The position numbers and the translations under genes are program-made. From positions 1 through 56,735 of IMG/VR virus record IMGVR_UViG_3300027869_000003: a DNA stretch of 56,735 bases. One strand, written 5' to 3'. The stretch is from a virus. Lineage: Duplodnaviria; Caudoviricetes. Below the pieces are notes generated by a model that was not told where the DNA came from, made no database searches, and worked only from the letters and a program-made list of their open reading frames with translations. Every line of letters begins with the position of its first letter. The first letter of the stretch is position 1. Shown in pieces: positions 2,425 through 12,564 of the stretch.

Positions 2425-2594
2425 GGCCTTCTACTCCAACTGTATTTGGATATGACCAGACTTGTCTCACCAGCATAGGTTCTTGATTTGTCTGACCTTC
2501 ATACAGCCGTGGCGGAAACTTAAAATAACCATCACGCACACCAGCCCAGGCACGTCATCAACGGCTAAACCGGCCGGATCGGGAATGATTTCTA

Positions 2595-2629: not shown

Positions 2630-3379
2630 ATGACCAGAAAACACGAACTAAGCATCCCTGGAATTTACACCATCACCCACACAGCCTCCGGAAAGGTCTA
2701 TGTGGGCCAGTCAGATCGTATTCGACGGCGATGGATGTCCCACCGCGGGAGCCTGAAGAAAGGCACACATCGAAACTTTCTGCTTCAACGCGCATGGAAT
2801 GCCCACGGCGCTGATGCTTTCGTTTTCGCGGTGTATATCGATCTCAGTCACGTGTCTCCGGATCAACTTACCGAAGCTCTTAATGCCGCTGAACGACAGG
2901 CGCTGCTCGACTTCCCCAAGTCGTACAACCTGATGGAAGCGGGAGACAGAGGACCGTCCGCCAGCAAATCCACCCGTGAATTGTGGTCCAGACAGCGATT
3001 GGAAATGTGGGCTAAGCCCGGCGCCAAAGAACGAGCGAGCAAAGCCACGAAAGCACTGTACGCTGATCCTCAGTGGAAAGCCGCGCGAGATGCCGCTATG
3101 AAAGAAGGCAAGAACACGGCCGAGGTCAAAGCCGCTGTATCCGCGCACATGACGGAACTCTGGCAGACGCCGGAACATCAGGCCGCCATGTCCGCTGCCC
3201 GCACAGCCAACTGGAAAGATCCAGAATACCGCGCGAAGCAAAAAGAATCCCGGTCCGCGGTATGGCAAGATCCAGTCAAACGACAGCGCCGCATTGATGG
3301 ATTGAAAGCCGCATGGATCATCCGGCGAGCACGAGAGGAAGAAAAGTTGAAAGCGTGGCAAAAAGAACTCGGCATCTAG
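2630..3379 (+). CDS. GIY-YIG homing endonuclease with helical (NUMOD3-like) repeats, antisense to the head operon
   Basis: GIYTITH...VYVGQS..IRRRW..H...H.N..LQRAWN; C-terminal W-x-x-P repeats. Confidence 0.9.
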   Translation: MTRKHELSIPGIYTITHTASGKVYVGQSDRIRRRWMSHRGSLKKGTHRNFLLQRAWNAHGADAFVFAVYIDLSHVSPDQLTEALNAAERQALLDFPKSYNLMEAGDRGPSASKSTRELWSRQRLEMWAKPGAKERASKATKALYADPQWKAARDAAMKEGKNTAEVKAAVSAHMTELWQTPEHQAAMSAARTANWKDPEYRAKQKESRSAVWQDPVKRQRRIDGLKAAWIIRRAREEEKLKAWQKELGI

Positions 3380-4152
3380 CGGGGGCGCCCGCCCAACGAC
3401 CGCGGCGCCTGTTTGTCCCACAACGCCGCCCACTCCTTCATGGACAACTTCTCATCGTAGATATCCGGCTCCGGTTCCACGGCGGGCGTCCGTAGTGGCG
3501 CGACCGGCTTTGGCGCACTGGACGCGCGTGGCGTCGAGGTTGTTTCCATTTTCGCGTCCAGCCTTCCCAGATGTGCCGCCATCGCGGCGGGGGATTTCTT
3601 CAGCAGCGCCACGACCTCGTCGCTGTCGTCAGCGAGCGCGGTGAAAATCTTCGCGGGGTTCGATGTCTCGGCCAACGCCTCGAGGAACGCCTGATTCCCC
3701 GTTGCCCCGAGCCCGGTGAGGATGTCCTTCGCGCTTTCCCACGCCTCGCGGCCGGCCTCCGTCTTGCCCGCCGTATCGATGTCGGTCAGCCGTTTGGCGA
3801 AGGCGCGCTGGCGGATCAGTTCGTCGGCAGCGGTCTCGATGTCCGCTGTCGCCGTGGCGCGCGGTGGCGTGGGTTGCTCGCCATTGCCGCCCCGCGTGGC
3901 CTGTAGCATAGCTTCAGCGGCTTGCGCGCGGCGCTCGGCCTCGGCGACCTCCGCCTCTTTCGCGGCCAGGCGCGCGGTCAGGTTGGCGACGTGGCGATCG
4001 GCCCGGCGCGGCTTTGGTTGCTCCGGTTCCGGCTCTGGCGCCGCGTCCTGTTCCGGCGCGGCCTCGGTCGAGACCGGGGGGATGATCTCGACGGGCGGCT
4101 CCGGAACAGGCGCGGATTCGATCGGCGGTTCGGCTTGCGTGGTTTCGCTCAT
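3376..4152 (-). CDS. Scaffolding protein
   Basis: Acidic/Pro-rich N-terminus, coiled coil, SSAPKPVAPL and SMKEW C-terminus; lies between portal and coat. Confidence 0.8.
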   Translation of the reverse strand: MSETTQAEPPIESAPVPEPPVEIIPPVSTEAAPEQDAAPEPEPEQPKPRRADRHVANLTARLAAKEAEVAEAERRAQAAEAMLQATRGGNGEQPTPPRATATADIETAADELIRQRAFAKRLTDIDTAGKTEAGREAWESAKDILTGLGATGNQAFLEALAETSNPAKIFTALADDSDEVVALLKKSPAAMAAHLGRLDAKMETTSTPRASSAPKPVAPLRTPAVEPEPDIYDEKLSMKEWAALWDKQAPRSLGGRPR

Positions 4153-4168: not shown

Positions 4169-5311
4169 TCACGGCTGGTCCCCGCCGGATGGGGTTTGGT
4201 TTTGAACAGACGCCGCGCCAGCGCCGCCCGCCATCAGGCCGGCGATGCCGTATTTGCGGATGATGTTCATGATTTCGGGGCTGAAGACGACGGTGTTGCG
4301 GCTGCCCTCGCCCGCGCCGCGGCTGCCCGCGTCGAGGTAGCGAATGCCGGGTATGCCCGCTTCATGAAGTGCCTGCGCCGCGCCTGTAATCGACTGTTTG
4401 ACCGCCTTCCCCGCCGGGATTTCATAAAACGTCGGATCGCCGTTCATCCGTGAGTGTGCGTCGGCGAGGTCTTTGTAGAATTGCTGTCCCGTGGCTACCT
4501 TGCGGGCGGCCACACCATCTGGGTTATCCAACGCGACACGCGAAGCCCCTTGGATGTTTGCTCTCACTTCCGGTGATAATTTCGCCAACGCATCCCGCAC
4601 ATGCTGGCTTTGCTCGCTCAGCGGCTTGTCCCAATCCAGAAAGTGCGCGGGATCGGCGTTGACCTGGACCTCGTACATGTGACCGGGGTTCGCGCGCCTC
4701 GCATCAGCCAGCGCCGATTCGGCGGCGGCTATTCTGTCATGCGCGGCCTGCGACCCGTCAAAGTTGTAATGAGCGTCGTTGAACTCTTTTTCCGCCGCCT
4801 GATATGCCGGACTTCCCTGGCCTTGCAGCGCGTCACGATATTCGCGCGCCACAGCCTCATTGTCCGCGAAGTACATTCCGTGGCCGTAAGCCTGCGCGCC
4901 CTCGCCGGTGCCAATCTTGGAAGCGTCAAACTGATCGAACAAGTGCGGCGAGCCGTGGAACGCGCGGAAGCCACCACCGCTCGGCCCCACGCCACCCATC
5001 GCCATCGCCATGTCGATCGCGTTCTCTGCGTGCTGCTGGCCCTCGGCGGTCAACTGGCCGGACCAAGGATCAACATATCGTGACACCGGCTCGGCCGCCA
5101 TCTGGCCTGTCGTCGGCATCGTCCCGGGCGCGATTTCGTTCTGCAACGGCGTGGCGCTTGTCAACGATTGCCCGTAGGGCGCAGGCTGCGCCTGACCCAT
5201 CGCCTGCCAGCGCGCGAGTTGGTCCTGTAGCGACGTCTGCCCGGGCCACCATGCCGGCGCGAGCGGTTGCGTCAGCCAGTCGCGGTTCGTCTGCAAGGGG
5301 TTACGCGCCAC
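4169..5311 (-). CDS. ADP-ribosyltransferase-like (ART-PolyVal-type) domain protein
   Basis: AFHGSPHLFDQFD..IGTGEGAQAYGHGMYF..VAREY, MYEVQV, LDWDKPLSEQ, GIPGIRYLD, VVF. Confidence 0.65.
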   Translation of the reverse strand: MARNPLQTNRDWLTQPLAPAWWPGQTSLQDQLARWQAMGQAQPAPYGQSLTSATPLQNEIAPGTMPTTGQMAAEPVSRYVDPWSGQLTAEGQQHAENAIDMAMAMGGVGPSGGGFRAFHGSPHLFDQFDASKIGTGEGAQAYGHGMYFADNEAVAREYRDALQGQGSPAYQAAEKEFNDAHYNFDGSQAAHDRIAAAESALADARRANPGHMYEVQVNADPAHFLDWDKPLSEQSQHVRDALAKLSPEVRANIQGASRVALDNPDGVAARKVATGQQFYKDLADAHSRMNGDPTFYEIPAGKAVKQSITGAAQALHEAGIPGIRYLDAGSRGAGEGSRNTVVFSPEIMNIIRKYGIAGLMAGGAGAASVQNQTPSGGDQP

Positions 5312-5314
5312 GGC

Positions 5315-5719
5315 TCAATGCAACGTGCTCGGAATACTGGCGTTCGCTTCCGCCACGTAGCGGTTGGCACGCAGGTCGGTGTCCTTCACCAGCGCATCCG
5401 CGATCTCGTCCTTCTGCTTACGCGGCATCACGTCGTCAGGCAGCGCCAGGCAGTCCGTGAGCGCGCGCCGCGCGTCCTCCAGTAGCCGGGGCGCGACGCG
5501 CTCGACAAACACAAGCCGCGCGGCCTTCTCAGTGATCTGACCCTGCGCCCGGATCGCCTTGTAAAAAGCGTTATCAGCCGCGAAGGACTCGAAATATTCC
5601 TCCGCCATCTTCACGGCGCACTCAGCGACCATGCGGTGTGCGTTCAGGCCGGTGTTGGTGCCGGAGACGCGCGACAGTTCGGCGGTTTTGCGGCCGATGT
5701 GCGGGCGTTTTAGGGTCAT
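5315..5719 (-). CDS. Hypothetical protein
   Basis: 134-aa ORF coupled (ATGA) to the upstream gene in the head operon. Confidence 0.75.
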   Translation of the reverse strand: MTLKRPHIGRKTAELSRVSGTNTGLNAHRMVAECAVKMAEEYFESFAADNAFYKAIRAQGQITEKAARLVFVERVAPRLLEDARRALTDCLALPDDVMPRKQKDEIADALVKDTDLRANRYVAEANASIPSTLH

Positions 5720-6030
5720 ACCGGGAACTTCGTGAAATCTCCGCCAAGCATCCGACGATCGCCAGGCACAACGCGCGTCCAGTCGTGCGGCACGGACTTT
5801 ACCGCGTCGATGTTCAGCTTGCGGACCACGCCCGCGGCAGCCTCATAGAGTGCCCGCCAGTGCGCCGCTTCCTGCCGTGCCGCGTCACGCTCGGCGATGG
5901 CATGGGCGCGGAGGTTCATGGCGGCGGTCAGTTCGTCGTCGAGTATAGCCGTTGCGCCGCCTGCTGTACTTTCCCAGATCCTAACCGCGACTTTGTTCAA
6001 CATGTCGATGGTCAGCACCTTATCGGACAC
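5716..6030 (-). CDS. Small protein with a capsid-N-terminus-like first 22 aa and a coiled coil
   Basis: GTG start with AGGAG RBS; MSDKVLTIDMLNKVAVRIWEST vs coat MADKLLTIDLVTRVAVRLWKNT. Confidence 0.75.
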   Translation of the reverse strand: MSDKVLTIDMLNKVAVRIWESTAGGATAILDDELTAAMNLRAHAIAERDAARQEAAHWRALYEAAAGVVRKLNIDAVKSVPHDWTRVVPGDRRMLGGDFTKFPV

Positions 6031-6104
6031 AGAACGAACTCCTGTTGTATTTACTCCGCGGCATTACCCTAACTCACCTGCGATGGTTCTTGAACCATGG
6101 TCCA

Positions 6105-8312
6105 TCACATCCCCCCTGGCTGCGCCGCTTGCTGGCCTACGTCGGGCACGCGCACCGGCAACGCACCCGTGGCACCCGGCGGTCCCTCGGCGCTCGTGGA
6201 CTGTTCCAGGCCACCGCGTAGGCTCGCCACGATCGGGCCAAGATTGTCCTGCAACGCCTGGCGCACGGTCTGCGCGATAAGCGCCTGCATGGCCACCGGA
6301 TCGGCCGGGATCATGTCCTTGACCACCGCGAGCCGCTTCGTGTCGGCATCGAATGCGTCGATCGTATTGTCGCTGTCCTTGGCCTTGACCTTCAACCGTT
6401 CCTCGGTCAGCGCCTGCATGGCCTCCGCGAGCAGCTTCTCGGTGTTCATCCCTTTGGCCTGGGCGACCTGTAGCGCCTTCTGCAACTCGGTCATCGCCGC
6501 CTGCGCCTGCGGATCCAGGCCGGGCTTCAGCCGCTCGGCCATCTCGTCGGCGAGCGGGAAATCGGCAACTTTGAACAGCAGGTCGCCGATCTTGTTGATG
6601 AGTTCCGGCGCCTGAGTCAGGATTTGCACGATCGCGTTGAACGCCTCCTGGCGCTGCGTGGCGTAATCAGGCCCAACATCCGATACGACCTCATAATTGC
6701 CGATGTTCGGGTTGAAAATGCGCGTGATCGCGTCGCCAATCCGCTTCTCGCGATGTGCTTCAGGCGAGTTCGGATCAATCTGAACCTCTTCCTCTTCGTC
6801 CTTTGCGTTGATGATCTTGGCGACGCGCTGCGTGTCGTAAATGACCGGTATCCATTCCTTGATTATCGTGCCCTGCCGGCGGATGGCGAGCGCCTGATTG
6901 TCGAGGAAATGATAGGTCGCCCGGTCTCCCTGACGCTGACGCTCGTTGATAGCCTTGCCGCTGCGCTCGTTGCCGGGCTGGCCCATCGTGGCCTCATACT
7001 GGCCGGACGCGCTCTGCATGAACTGCTGCGCGAGTTGCACGCCCTCCATGTAAACCGGGGCTGCGGTCGGCGGCTGCATCTTGGTCGGAGGCGGTATTTC
7101 CTTTCCCTCTTCGTCACGATGCACCCACGGAATAACACCGTGATTGACCACGTTCGATGTCGTGTAATACGTCATGTAATCGCCAATCGCGGCGACCGGC
7201 GCCAGCCACGGCGACTTGCTTTGCAGCGCGCCATACTCGATCGACGCGGACCAGTTGTAATTCAGCATCCGCTGCGCGTCGATCATGCCGCGCGTGTGCG
7301 AAACGCGATCGAGCCGCTTGTCGATCAGCGTGATGCGCCCGTTCCATGGGATGATCGGCACGCATGTTCCGGGCAGATCGTCCGGTTCGCCGACCACATC
7401 ATTGCCGATTATGAGGTAGCATTTGACCTTTTTGCGGATGACATCGCGGCGGCGGAGTTTCTTGCCCTGTTCCTCCGCGTCATCCTCCCACTGACGGAAC
7501 AATTTCGCCGGCACGTCCGAGCGATAGACGGTCACGCCCTCGTCATCGCACACGAGTTCGTCTTTCTCTTCCTCGACCTCGTAATAGCGGCACTCGCGCA
7601 CATGATCGTCGCGGATCCAACCGGAATCGTGACCGTCAACCGCGTTGGCGACGGTCAGGCGGTTTTCGAGTTCCGGATATTCCTCGATGACCTCATCTTT
7701 CGGGCGGTCGCTGAACACGAACCCGTAGCGTGCGCCGGTGCCGTCCGGTTCCTCGCAATCACAATCCAGCATCACACCCATCGGGTTTTTCACCGACGAT
7801 ATGATGATTTCCTGGTCCATCGCTTCCGGGCCAGGCGTCGGGTCAGGCGTGACATAGCGGGATTCGATGATCGTGTAACCGAGCCCGGCGTCGACCTGGA
7901 ACTCGATCGCCATGCCTTGCGCCATCTGCGCGTTGCTGATGTTGGCGATGTTGCGGTACATGCCCTCGTAGACCTCGGCGGCGGCCTGTGTGGCACCGGC
8001 ACCGGTCGGGCGGTATTTGACGCTCGCCTTGTTTTGCTTCGCGTCGTTGATGATGTGCAGGTTTCGCACGCGCGTTTCGTTGACGGTCAGCGACGGTCGC
8101 GAGCCACGATCTTTGTAGACCTCAGCCGGCCATTGCCATGTGTTGTAAGCGTCGCCGTTGACGAAGCGAAGATCGCTGGCCCAATTCGAGCGCGCGGAGG
8201 ACTCCCAATCGCGGCATTTGCGCCAGCGGCGGTGCGCGCGATTGACCACGTCCTGATATTTACGCCCGCCGACTGATTGGATTTCGTCGTCGCTGTCGAG
8301 AGTGGAGGACAA
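6105..8312 (-). CDS. Portal protein, P22 gp1-like
   Basis: 735 aa; DLRFVNGD..QW, RPSLTVN, DAQRMLNY, NERSGKAINERQ, GPDYATQRQEA. Confidence 0.93.
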   Translation of the reverse strand: MSSTLDSDDEIQSVGGRKYQDVVNRAHRRWRKCRDWESSARSNWASDLRFVNGDAYNTWQWPAEVYKDRGSRPSLTVNETRVRNLHIINDAKQNKASVKYRPTGAGATQAAAEVYEGMYRNIANISNAQMAQGMAIEFQVDAGLGYTIIESRYVTPDPTPGPEAMDQEIIISSVKNPMGVMLDCDCEEPDGTGARYGFVFSDRPKDEVIEEYPELENRLTVANAVDGHDSGWIRDDHVRECRYYEVEEEKDELVCDDEGVTVYRSDVPAKLFRQWEDDAEEQGKKLRRRDVIRKKVKCYLIIGNDVVGEPDDLPGTCVPIIPWNGRITLIDKRLDRVSHTRGMIDAQRMLNYNWSASIEYGALQSKSPWLAPVAAIGDYMTYYTTSNVVNHGVIPWVHRDEEGKEIPPPTKMQPPTAAPVYMEGVQLAQQFMQSASGQYEATMGQPGNERSGKAINERQRQGDRATYHFLDNQALAIRRQGTIIKEWIPVIYDTQRVAKIINAKDEEEEVQIDPNSPEAHREKRIGDAITRIFNPNIGNYEVVSDVGPDYATQRQEAFNAIVQILTQAPELINKIGDLLFKVADFPLADEMAERLKPGLDPQAQAAMTELQKALQVAQAKGMNTEKLLAEAMQALTEERLKVKAKDSDNTIDAFDADTKRLAVVKDMIPADPVAMQALIAQTVRQALQDNLGPIVASLRGGLEQSTSAEGPPGATGALPVRVPDVGQQAAQPGGM

Positions 8313-9658: not shown

Positions 9659-12109
9659 TCAGATCGAGGCCCAGCCGCCAGACGTGGGCGGAATGGGGCG
9701 ATGGACGTAGGGGGGAACGACGGGCTTGTTGACCGCGTTCTCGGGATCGGACGAGCCTTGAACGCCGGTGCCGATCGCGTCCGATCCGTGCGAGGCATCA
9801 TCGTGAACGGGCTCCGCGCGCCACACGCCCATGTGCTCGTTCCATGCGCGCCGGTAGGCACGCAGCCGCTTCAGTCCAACCTCGCAGCCCTTCGCGTCGA
9901 ACCACGAGCGCGGCAGGATCTGCCGCACGGCGGAGACGCGATCGGCGGGGTTCGCCGCCGGGACCACGAAGATCGGCTTGACGCCAAGGCCGAGCAGCGT
10001 CGTGCGGCGCGATTTGCCGCCCGCGCTCAGTTCACGAACCTCGATGTCATGCGGGAGATAGTGCTTGCCATAGACGTACGGCTTGCTGTGCAGAAGTCTC
10101 GCATAATGATCGAAGCCCTGGCCGCTGTCCTCGTGATATTCAAGCCAGCGCCATTCGCCGCCTGGGCTGCGCTGAAACCACCAGATAGCGGTGGAGTCGT
10201 CCATGCCTAAGTCCCAACTTGTGAACACAGGCAACTTAGGATCATACGTCACGCGCGTTACGCGATTGTCACGAATGACTTCATCCAGCCATTTGCCGTA
10301 ATAACTGCCGGAGTTTGGCGACGTGAACGAACATTCGAGTTCTTGTGCGAATTCCTCGACATCCAACGTCTCGCGAAGTCGTTGCACCTGCTTATCGTCA
10401 AGCGCGCCGGTCTCAGTGTAAGGCAGCAGATAGCGCGAGGCGTGCGGATCATGGCCGGCGGCGTCGTAAGCAGCGGCGAGGCGTCCATTGCCCTTCGGCG
10501 TGCCGATCTTGATGCGCGCGCCGTCGTAGTCGGACAACATTGGTTCGATGACTAAATCCAGGCCGGAAGCAATCACATCGTCAGCTTCATCTTCAATGAC
10601 TTCATCGGCGTATGAACCACGGTAGCTGTCAGGCTTATCCATTCCCCCACATTGATATACACCGCCATTAGGCAGTTCCACCCGCAACACGGACTTCATC
10701 GCTATCGCGCCAGGGATCATCTCAGCAGCGCGGGCTACCTTGTCCCAAAGCCCAGTCCGTTGCCACATCACTTGCCCAGGAAGGACGTGAATCACGCGAG
10801 GCGGATCAGATTTCAGATTGCGCCGATGCAGCGGTAAATGCCTGCGATCCTCCGTCAACGCCTTACGAAGACCTCGCCAGATAAACGCTGTGCTGTTATG
10901 AGTCGGGATCAGCCCTTCGCCGGCCAGATAAAGATGGGATGGACTATCGACCGTGATGCAGCGCACCGGTCGGCTTTCCACCGGTTCAACAGATACAATC
11001 CGGCGCATTCCCCCGAAAGCATTGCGGTTGGCCGCGCTGCCCGGCAGTTTGAATACGCTAGCCTTTCTGGTCAGTTTGAATGGATTGAATGCCGGGCTGA
11101 ACGTGATCCTATGATAAACCTTCCCATTAACGACCTTTTCAGCGACGCGCGGATTACCGCCAAGCGCCCGAATAAGCGCGATGATGCCAGTCGCCAGTGC
11201 GCCATTCTTCTGAGCGATCTCGCATCTTCGTCCGCCTCTTGGATCAATCGATCCGTCGGTGTCCATGATGCCGCGAAGCAGTTCTAATCGCTGCCGTTGG
11301 CCGGCTCGTAGATAGGCTGCGGGAATATGCTTGTTCTTAATTAAGCCGATCTGGCGCAATCGCCTTGTGAGGCTATCGGTTTCATGATGTCCGCTATCTC
11401 CCGCCACCGAATAACTGCGCGCGAGACCTTGGCCTCCCTTCGATGCGATGGTTGAAAACCGCCAATCGTTGGCCTCAGCGTATTCTTTCAAGCCAACGAC
11501 AATCTCTTGGTCCATCGTCGTGAACCGAGCCGTGCGGCTATGTCCATCTCCGAGCCACAGGCCCAGGATGTAAGGATCAATCGGAAGCACGGCATCGGGA
11601 AAATCGAGCGGGCCCGCGAATGGGATTGCATGGTTCGATTCTCCCCGAGATCTGAGTGTGTCTCTGATTACCGCCGTGGTCTTCGCTGTTCCTGGCCGGC
11701 GTTTCTGAATGCCAGACACTGGCTTATGGCCCCGCCCGGTTCCTTTGACATAACGCCCGACCCGCGTCGTCCTGTCCGCCTTGGTCTCGGTGTACCAAAG
11801 ATGGTCTTCATCACAAACGATCTGCTGGCCGTCGTCGAATGTCACGGCGTAACATGGCCTACCATGCATAACAGGATAAGCGTGGGTTACGTGGCAGAGT
11901 TCACCCGATTCATCGAATATTATATCGCCGCGGGCCAGATCACCCATCGCCTTAAACGCACCGCTCGCGGTCATGATCGGCGTGGTGACGTCCAATGCCT
12001 TGCCGGCTCTCCTATGAACAACTGCCACCATGGCGCGAGACTTGTCGTCCATGAGCGGCATTTGCCACGGGCGCGGCGTAAACGGCAGGGTGACATATTT
12101 GACTGTCAT
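9659..12109 (-). CDS. terL: Terminase large subunit (intein-containing precursor)
   Basis: PRPWQ motif, Walker A HRRAGK|S, Walker B VIEDE, GTPKG, nuclease WDLGMDD and HDDASHGSDA; ATG 12109 overlaps the terS stop. Confidence 0.95.
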   Translation of the reverse strand: MTVKYVTLPFTPRPWQMPLMDDKSRAMVAVVHRRAGKALDVTTPIMTASGAFKAMGDLARGDIIFDESGELCHVTHAYPVMHGRPCYAVTFDDGQQIVCDEDHLWYTETKADRTTRVGRYVKGTGRGHKPVSGIQKRRPGTAKTTAVIRDTLRSRGESNHAIPFAGPLDFPDAVLPIDPYILGLWLGDGHSRTARFTTMDQEIVVGLKEYAEANDWRFSTIASKGGQGLARSYSVAGDSGHHETDSLTRRLRQIGLIKNKHIPAAYLRAGQRQRLELLRGIMDTDGSIDPRGGRRCEIAQKNGALATGIIALIRALGGNPRVAEKVVNGKVYHRITFSPAFNPFKLTRKASVFKLPGSAANRNAFGGMRRIVSVEPVESRPVRCITVDSPSHLYLAGEGLIPTHNSTAFIWRGLRKALTEDRRHLPLHRRNLKSDPPRVIHVLPGQVMWQRTGLWDKVARAAEMIPGAIAMKSVLRVELPNGGVYQCGGMDKPDSYRGSYADEVIEDEADDVIASGLDLVIEPMLSDYDGARIKIGTPKGNGRLAAAYDAAGHDPHASRYLLPYTETGALDDKQVQRLRETLDVEEFAQELECSFTSPNSGSYYGKWLDEVIRDNRVTRVTYDPKLPVFTSWDLGMDDSTAIWWFQRSPGGEWRWLEYHEDSGQGFDHYARLLHSKPYVYGKHYLPHDIEVRELSAGGKSRRTTLLGLGVKPIFVVPAANPADRVSAVRQILPRSWFDAKGCEVGLKRLRAYRRAWNEHMGVWRAEPVHDDASHGSDAIGTGVQGSSDPENAVNKPVVPPYVHRPIPPTSGGWASI
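10895..11998 (-). mobile_element. Class-3 (Ala1, WCT) intein with LAGLIDADG endonuclease, 368 aa
   Basis: Starts ALDVTTPI, block B CDEDHLW, block F VRCITV, ends PTHN/S; LGLWLGDG and LRGIMDTDG motifs. Confidence 0.92.
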
Positions 12110-12564
12110 TCGGTCGGCTTTGGCCCGTCCCACCGGTAGACGACCTCGGTGTTGCCATCGCCAGCAGCGTTCGCGTGCTGCAACTTGTCGCCGTATGTTC
12201 CTGGTCTCAGTTTGGACAGCAGCCACTTGCGGGTGTCAACGCGAAGACGGGAACGCGTCACATGCTCATGGTCCACACTCATTTCGACTGAGCCGTCTTT
12301 CCCCGCGCGCTGCATCCAATCGTTCGCGCCATCGTCTGATATTTCAACGATCTGATCGGCCCAATGCTCTGCCTGTAATTCTCTCGCGCGCACGTATCGC
12401 ACGGAAAATCCATCTGGATTATCCATCACCCAACCCCTAACGGTGCTGGCCGGTGGCATTCCTTCGCTTCGGCTGATCTCGTTCAGGCTTTCGCCCTCTG
12501 CCATGCGCCGACAGATTTCATCGGCGATGGTCCTGGCATATTTTGACGGTCTTCCGCGTTCCAC
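12106..12564 (-). CDS. terS: Terminase small subunit
   Basis: GRPSKY..IADEICRRMAEGESL, MP..STV..W, RSRLRVDTRKWLLSKL.P..YGDK. Confidence 0.93.
   Translation of the reverse strand: MERGRPSKYARTIADEICRRMAEGESLNEISRSEGMPPASTVRGWVMDNPDGFSVRYVRARELQAEHWADQIVEISDDGANDWMQRAGKDGSVEMSVDHEHVTRSRLRVDTRKWLLSKLRPGTYGDKLQHANAAGDGNTEVVYRWDGPKPTE

Follow-up and report, generated by a model that had tools for sequence, protein, structure and literature searches.

Why does a small gene directly behind a phage portal gene begin like the major coat protein of the same phage? The gene is small104, on the minus strand of the window, which is the whole stretch of 56,735 nt analysed here and corresponds to an IMG/VR record of a complete virus of 56.7 kb with direct terminal repeats. 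It encodes 104 aa from a GTG start codon with GGAG 8 nt before it, and its stop codon overlaps the ATG of the next gene, orf134 (ATGA). A separate gene call in the protein collection is an identical 104-aa protein (P0001), and the GC content by codon position (0.68/0.46/0.73) is like that of the neighbouring genes. The portal stop and the small104 start are separated by a spacer of 74 nt, with its own GGAG and GTG.

The head module of the window is on the minus strand, with the positions of its genes and of the features discussed below given in Table 1. For comparison, 35 related loci were gathered through the coat protein. Among these IMG/VR loci, orf134 is matched by tblastn in all 23 that have a portal match, with 37–84% identity, and in those that match the scaffold too it lies between that gene and the portal. 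Pfam and PHROGs give no family for orf134, which from this distribution appears to be a conserved core gene of the head module. Two other genes of the module carry additions of their own. The large terminase has an internal LAGLIDADG_3 / Hom_end match at residues about 312–376, and this insert is probably an intein. The 380-aa ART-PolyVal protein encoded between orf134 and the scaffold has an ADP-ribosyltransferase domain; among the relatives only L011 weakly matches its N-terminal third, and the gene therefore looks like inserted cargo.

Table 1. Positions in the window of the head module genes, of small104 and its parts, and of the copied coat sequence.
Feature	Position	Strand
Small terminase, Sf6 type	12106-12564	-
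Large terminase, 855 aa, LAGLIDADG-type insert	9659-12226	-
Portal (P22-like; P22_portal, E 4.5e-126), directly upstream of small104	6105-8312	-
Remnant of ancestral portal-coupled start (TGATG), now a 13-codon upstream ORF ending inside the patch	6064..6105	-
Mosaic block, patch plus codons 23-40; replaced in the contigs of three other runs	5911..6101	-
Non-coding part of patch, homologous to the coat upstream region	6031..6095	-
Patch motif AAGAAC-N8-GTGAG	6073-6091	-
Patch motif AAATACA	6046-6052	-
Patch motif GGAG	6039-6042	-
small104, chimeric 104-aa gene, stop included	5716-6030	-
small104 codons 1-22, coat N-arm-like peptide, predicted helix 8-24	5965..6030	-
small104 codons 41-104, conserved family part: long helix, then tail motif HDWTR..GDRRMLGG	5716..5910	-
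orf134, conserved gene coupled to small104	5315-5719	-
380-aa ART-PolyVal protein	4169-5311	-
Scaffolding protein (phrog_8865), proposed partner of an N-arm mimic	3376-4152	-
GIY-YIG homing endonuclease gene, between scaffold and coat	2630-3379	+
Upstream element of the coat gene itself	2434..2484	-
Coat upstream motif AAGAAC-N8-GTGAG	2466-2484	-
Coat upstream motif AAATACA-N3-GGAG	2434-2447	-
Major coat gene (P22_CoatProtein, Pfam E 3.1e-33); paralogous source type of the patch	1219-2424	-
Coat N-arm codons 1-22	2359-2424	-
HNH-AP2 endonuclease gene, start overlaps coat end	585-1226	-

The resemblance of the small104 N-terminus to the coat N-arm was noticed in an initial annotation made from the letters alone, and it lies far beyond chance. 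Residues 1–22 of the two proteins are identical at 13 of 22 positions and all 9 differences score BLOSUM62 ≥ 0, giving an ungapped score of 74. The best six-frame scores in the genome of 300 shuffled queries had a mean of 27.2 (sd 3.6) and a maximum of 42, so that none reached 74. HMMER within the genome itself matches small104 to the coat N-terminus with E 2.9e-4, and a profile of the N-arm built from 17 coat alleles matches it in hhalign with a probability of 95% (E 3.7e-8, 24 columns). Past this part there is no detectable relation between small104 and the coat. The PF11651 coat domain, an HK97-type fold over about 400 residues, was not found in small104, where the 24 N-arm columns are what aligns. 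Searches of Pfam and PHROGs assign it to no family, and its nearest clusters in the Protein Atlas, viral proteins without names (scores 0.89–0.90), provide no family lead. The other features first remarked upon, namely that both genes start at GTG after GGAG, that the remainder of small104, described there as a coiled coil and modelled here as a single long helix, is unrelated to coat and that the gene follows the portal, are also borne out.

The extent of the copy is where the first description was too narrow. It had been placed in the coding sequence, and residues 1–22 are indeed included, but it continues for about 65 nt upstream of the start codon. The copied patch is about 131 nt long (about window 5965–6095) and is made up of a coat upstream element, the GGAG, the GTG start and codons 1–22. 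In blastn searches window 6092–5965 aligns to L011 (66.7% of 129) over a stretch that begins 62 nt upstream of the coat start and ends with codon 22, and window 6032–5970 aligns to the 5' end of the L004 coat gene (77.8% of 63). Upstream of the start codon the patch is most like the region before the L011 coat, with 46 of 68 aligned columns in common, compared with 37 of 71 for the coat upstream region of the window. Likewise, codons 1–22 are closest to the L004 allele, from which 17 of 66 nt differ, compared with 23 of 66 for the coat of the window. By these best matches, the source of the patch was a coat 5' region of the L011/L004 type and not the allele that the coat gene has now; because the donor allele is unsampled, the graft cannot be dated. 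The presence of homologous non-coding DNA upstream of the start codon is the mark of copying and not of convergence. This origin is the firm result of the analysis.

Multiple alignment with coat upstream regions identifies the blocks held in common as TCAAGAAC, GTGAG, AAATACA and GGAG. The combination AAATACA-N3-GGAG has two matches in the window, at coat and at small104, where 0.28 are expected and 5 of 100 shuffles reach two. AAGAAC-N5-11-GTGAG is likewise found only twice in the window, before coat and before small104, with 0.12 expected and none of 100 shuffles reaching two. This second motif is present in 23 of 39 loci, two of which are pieces of the window, and in the other 21 it precedes the coat start by 15–85 nt; L016 has a further match within the portal gene. 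Although a third of the upstream letters of the patch differ, these motifs are intact. A scan for σ70-type promoters had no match at the patch, and RNA folding of the patch and of three coat 5' regions (z 0.07, 0.29, 0.19 and −0.59) gave no structure signal. The AAGAAC..GTGAG cis-signal before coat genes is uncharacterised, and the natural second copy makes it testable.

The part of small104 that is not coat-like belongs to a family of small coiled-coil proteins in phages, as yet without a name, whose genes directly follow the portal. A family profile made from small104, P0002 and five proteins of this post-portal slot was searched against 1.84 billion representatives and found 20 proteins at E ≤ 1e-3, with P0001 returned at E 5e-7 and P0002 at 8.4e-9. 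The members have in common a helical core and a tail ending ..DWTRDF.GDRRR.GG. In small104 the C-terminal family motif, [HS]DWTR-x3-4-GDRR-x-GG, follows the long helix, as the alignment shows: HDWTRVVPGDRRMLGG. The position of the gene, right after the portal and before orf134, is also that of the family. The start codon is not, since in the family it overlaps the portal stop (TGATG coupling). The slot itself is variable among relatives, the closest of which encode proteins of 92–114 aa from an ATG overlapping the portal stop. In small104 the upstream ORF that starts at the corresponding ATG ends about 34 nt before the start codon and might affect re-initiation.

Some apparent relatives of the gene were set aside. 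The single metagenome-contig match of small104, L040, is a spurious frame over bacterial RecF/ClpP-like DNA. The 110-aa gene after the portal of Pseudomonas phage PAE2, of which the coat is 52% identical, is unrelated to small104. A role for the slot family as a mini-scaffold found no support either, hhalign against the scaffold giving a probability of 0.1% and only a 4-residue DRR match. This (G)DRR match, of scaffold residues 51–54 to the C-terminal tails of the slot family, is probably due to chance.

The coat-like N-terminus is rare. It is absent from all 18 other family proteins that were read, which include P0002; of the 20 found, P0023, an 889-aa weak hit, was left out. It is also absent from all 23 related loci with a readable post-portal slot. 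When all six-frame segments of 36 loci and of the window were searched with an N-arm HMM, only small104 (E 8.9e-5) and one ORF in L019 (E 3.2e-8) were found outside coat genes, the next matches having E ≥ 1.8. A tblastn search of small104 against 50,697 phage records gave 5 records, the best at E 0.2 and none credible, and a scan for small104 found no relatives in viral contigs and none in genome contigs. The word-indexed search for longer proteins with residues 1–40, a weak test, gave 6 candidates, none at E ≤ 10.

The closest relatives locate the joints of the chimera. Four soil-metagenome runs cover part of window 5650–6250, and the chimera is found only in X1, which is possibly the source of the record itself. 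Contigs of X2 and X4 match 5300–5910 and 6102–6500 and are about 91% identical on both sides (for X4, 53 letters differ in 611 and 39 in 399), with 146 different nt in place of window 5911–6101 and joints at 5910/6102. X3 has loose ends at 5910 and 6102. The contigs of these three runs, like the related loci, use the portal-coupled ATG. At 6102 the loose letters encode the beginning of P0002, the one close homolog of small104. P0002 differs from residues 41–104 of small104 at 3 of 64 positions (95% identical) and is the only protein to have the same 7-residue C-terminal extension, but its N-terminus is unrelated. The boundaries of the mosaic are sharp, at the portal stop and at codon 40/41. 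Residues 23–40 of small104 are only loosely like P0002 (DELTAAM vs DELDVAM), so that the whole 191-nt block, the patch together with a diverged piece of slot gene, looks like the mosaic unit and, we infer, was exchanged between lineages as such. By these comparisons small104 is a rare mosaic chimera of a coat 5' region and a slot gene. Mosaic and chimeric genes are made in phages when recombination is illegitimate or uses short homologies, and homing endonuclease genes and introns are often close by. small104 is similar to these in its sharp boundaries, its paralogous patch and a neighbourhood with many GIY-YIG, HNH and LAGLIDADG genes as well as group I introns. It differs from them in that the patch joins a conserved cis-element to an N-terminal structural peptide in which change has been constrained. 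Chimeric phage genes being already known, small104 is an unusually well-resolved variant.

The changes in the borrowed peptide show what has been lost and what has been kept. True coat N-arms hardly change: 13 of their first 22 columns are invariant in 17 alleles, and between pairs of these 3–6 codons differ non-synonymously and 9–11 only synonymously. small104 keeps 7 of the 13 invariant columns, the other 6 having been changed conservatively (A2S, L5V, T12N, R13K, L18I and N21S). In addition, small104 has E in place of the nearly invariant K20 of coats, and it lacks the NAFMRN motif with which coats continue. This indicates that small104 is free of coat-specific constraint. It is not, however, free of all constraint. 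In 20,000 neutral simulations of 17 nt changes from the closest allele, L004, the probability of a score as high as observed was 5.5e-4, and that of all substitutions having BLOSUM ≥ 0, given no stop, was 1.5e-4. About 35% of runs gained a stop, and simulations starting from L011 or from the coat of the window gave probabilities lower still. With all 9 replacements conservative (P about 1e-4 to 5e-4), the peptide is not a neutral relic, even though the count of changed residues does not by itself fall below what neutrality predicts (9 vs 10.6, P 0.22). Neutral drift of the first 22 codons, which in the initial annotation would have spoken against a mimic of the coat, is thus rejected. The same annotation had allowed for a relic of recombination; recombination as the origin is supported by the copied non-coding coat DNA, the remainder from another family and the different 5' block in relatives, but a relic evolving neutrally is not.

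These results can be accommodated as follows. About 131 nt were copied ectopically from the 5' end of a coat gene of the L011/L004 type and took the place of the beginning of a small coiled-coil gene, of which the usual start is the portal-stop ATG. The slot gene was thereby uncoupled from the portal and given the initiation signals of the coat gene itself. Its product begins with an N-arm-like helix, and a Gly-Gly connects this to the long helix of the family and its C-terminal tail. Selection may keep mainly the expression cassette, in which case the 22-residue helix would be a tolerated passenger under generic helix-preserving constraint, and not itself a specific ligand of the scaffold. 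That the patch has been kept as a coat-type expression cassette, with the N-arm-like helix tolerated, is our tentative preference, to which we give a chance a little short of even. It is preferred on account of the specific element that was copied, the remnant of the ancestral ATG, the family remainder, the relatives that do without the patch and the lost coat constraints. The origin, extent and rarity of the graft and the non-neutral change in it are what the sequences show; a benefit to expression is the part of this that we infer. Counted against it are the conservative changes, which could reflect a specific interaction, together with the ORF in L019 described below, the lack of a σ70 match or RNA fold at the patch and the unreduced count of changed residues. 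If the helix is a passenger, then small104 is a clean, datable example of a new gene start built by copying the control region of the most expressed gene, and also shows mosaic blocks moving between close relatives.

As the main alternative, the N-terminal helix may be a working mimic of the coat N-arm, which binds the C-terminal region of the scaffold or neighbouring coat subunits and so tethers a coiled-coil protein in procapsids or modulates assembly. This is doubtful, though by no means far-fetched. The conservative, non-neutral change over 22 codons is what would be expected of it, and the predicted structure is compatible. The AF2 model of small104 (19-row alignment, mean pLDDT 77) has a helix at 8–24, a break at the Gly-Gly, a helix at 27–78 (pLDDT 87–97) and a low-confidence tail with the family motif. 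According to published accounts, the P22 N-arm (residues 2–30) is a helix in the procapsid, where its D14, E15 and E18 contact R293 and K296 of the scaffold helix-turn-helix (PMC9965877; bioRxiv 10.1101/2022.12.13.520362). The coat of the window is a P22_CoatProtein member and the peptide that was copied corresponds to the first part of its N-arm and is likewise predicted to be helical. The likeness does not extend further, since small104 has only 22–24 N-arm-like residues with neither coat fold nor NAFMRN, and its binding to scaffold is putative. The N-arm of this clade is moreover basic where that of P22 is acidic, so the P22 salt-bridge model is not directly transferable. A complex prediction for residues 1–45 of small104 with scaffold 130–258 (score 0.02, mark 0.32), made from an 11-row alignment and without controls, counts neither way.

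The distribution of the peptide also speaks against the mimic. Of the 20 family proteins found, a single one has it; the 23 loci with a readable slot all lack it, and near-identical relatives do without it. Nor is there a decayed form of it in the family, an hhalign comparison of the coat N-arm profile with the family without small104 giving a probability of 0.05% over 1 aligned column. Homologs that lack the coat-like N-terminus had been named at the outset as evidence against mimicry. Within the peptide itself, the 6 changed positions of the 13 invariant ones, the reversal of K20 to E and the missing NAFMRN point the same way. For the more specific roles first suggested, a decoy against satellites or defence systems or a tag for loading cargo, nothing was found that points to them.

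There is precedent for the sharing of such motifs. SaPI1 CpmB copies the C-terminal helix-and-hook (RIIK motif) of the 80alpha scaffold, which contacts the coat N-arm (PMC5644958). As in CpmB, a short terminal motif from a capsid-assembly protein would in small104 be reused on a small, dimer-type helical accessory protein. The direction is the reverse, however, in that CpmB copies the end of the scaffold, binds coat and is encoded by a satellite, whereas small104 copies the end of the coat and is in the head module of the phage itself.

The capsid targeting sequences of T4 are N-terminal peptides on internal proteins; they are not known to be copies of a capsid protein, and the prohead protease cleaves them off. 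Both they and the small104 helix are N-terminal peptides that could direct proteins into proheads. When the head-module ORFs of the window were scanned for families, no prohead protease was noted between the terminase and coat genes. No coat-N-arm mimic was found in the literature on N-arm/scaffold biology and capsid targeting sequences, a search that was not exhaustive for such mimics. If the helix does bind the scaffold/coat lattice, it would be the first natural coat-N-arm tag, a handle for loading P22-type capsids and a new way of tuning assembly.

The mimic also draws support from a second ORF. At L019:751-1038 lies a 95-aa ORF (ORF95) with its start coupled to the scaffold stop (TGATG). 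Behind a coiled-coil-like head it carries diverged coat residues 10–61, in which ITR.AVRLW.N.NAF is kept. Its local score against the coat is 91, where shuffles give 22.8 ± 4.0, and over 41 aligned codons 10 are identical, 13 have synonymous-only changes and 18 have non-synonymous changes. Like small104, ORF95 is a singleton in the protein and viral collections, and from these features it appears to be a second N-arm graft, independent of the first. This raises a bolder proposal, that in these P22-like soil phages the coat N-arm helix is a portable module. Two or more independent grafts would have placed it on small coiled-coil proteins (small104 beside the portal, ORF95 beside the scaffold), and selection would keep it there to dock these proteins to the scaffold/coat lattice in procapsids. 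We consider this unlikely. If true, the phage would be loading or tuning its own capsids by a coat-side counterpart of CpmB-type scaffold mimicry. A pair of independent N-arm grafts is consistent with sloppy repair at a hot spot, yet it keeps the idea of a portable module alive.

The coat 5' end is such a hot spot, where the loci compared here show repeated traffic of selfish elements in the clade. A GIY-YIG gene lies just upstream of coat in the window, in L013/L014 and in L036/L038. Group I introns (Rfam RF00028) split coat after about codon 30 at L035:8179-8456 (60.5 bits) and L031:1103-1873 (50.2 bits), that of L031 carrying a 218-aa HNH endonuclease ORF. HNH genes follow coat, and the endonuclease genes that flank coat are patchy among relatives. 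L019 adds a partial duplication of coat. In the window itself there is no group I intron at the Rfam gathering threshold, and the patch was rejected as exon 1 of an intron-split coat gene, with no intron downstream of the N-arm codons.

From this traffic of homing endonucleases and introns, and from both extra N-arm ORFs being singletons, it could be argued that the start of small104 is a functionless recombination scar, with a drifting peptide and a gene that possibly starts further downstream. This is improbable. According to the neutral simulations the peptide has not drifted freely, the reading frame is open and has its GGAG before the GTG, the stop is coupled to the conserved orf134 and the conserved upstream motifs are intact. 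The weakest alternative, that all slot-family proteins carry a decayed N-arm-like helix by descent or convergence, appeals to weak local resemblances (LMTIE in P0007 vs LLTID in coats, VAV...W in the family core) and is barely credible in view of the hhalign result for the family and of the common non-coding upstream DNA, which shows copying.

Stretches resembling another part of the coat are found outside the coat gene in two of the loci. L022:5106-5243 and L023:8885-9136 resemble coat residues about 234–321, the region of the insertion domain, with 29–37% identity, and may be separate copies of that domain.
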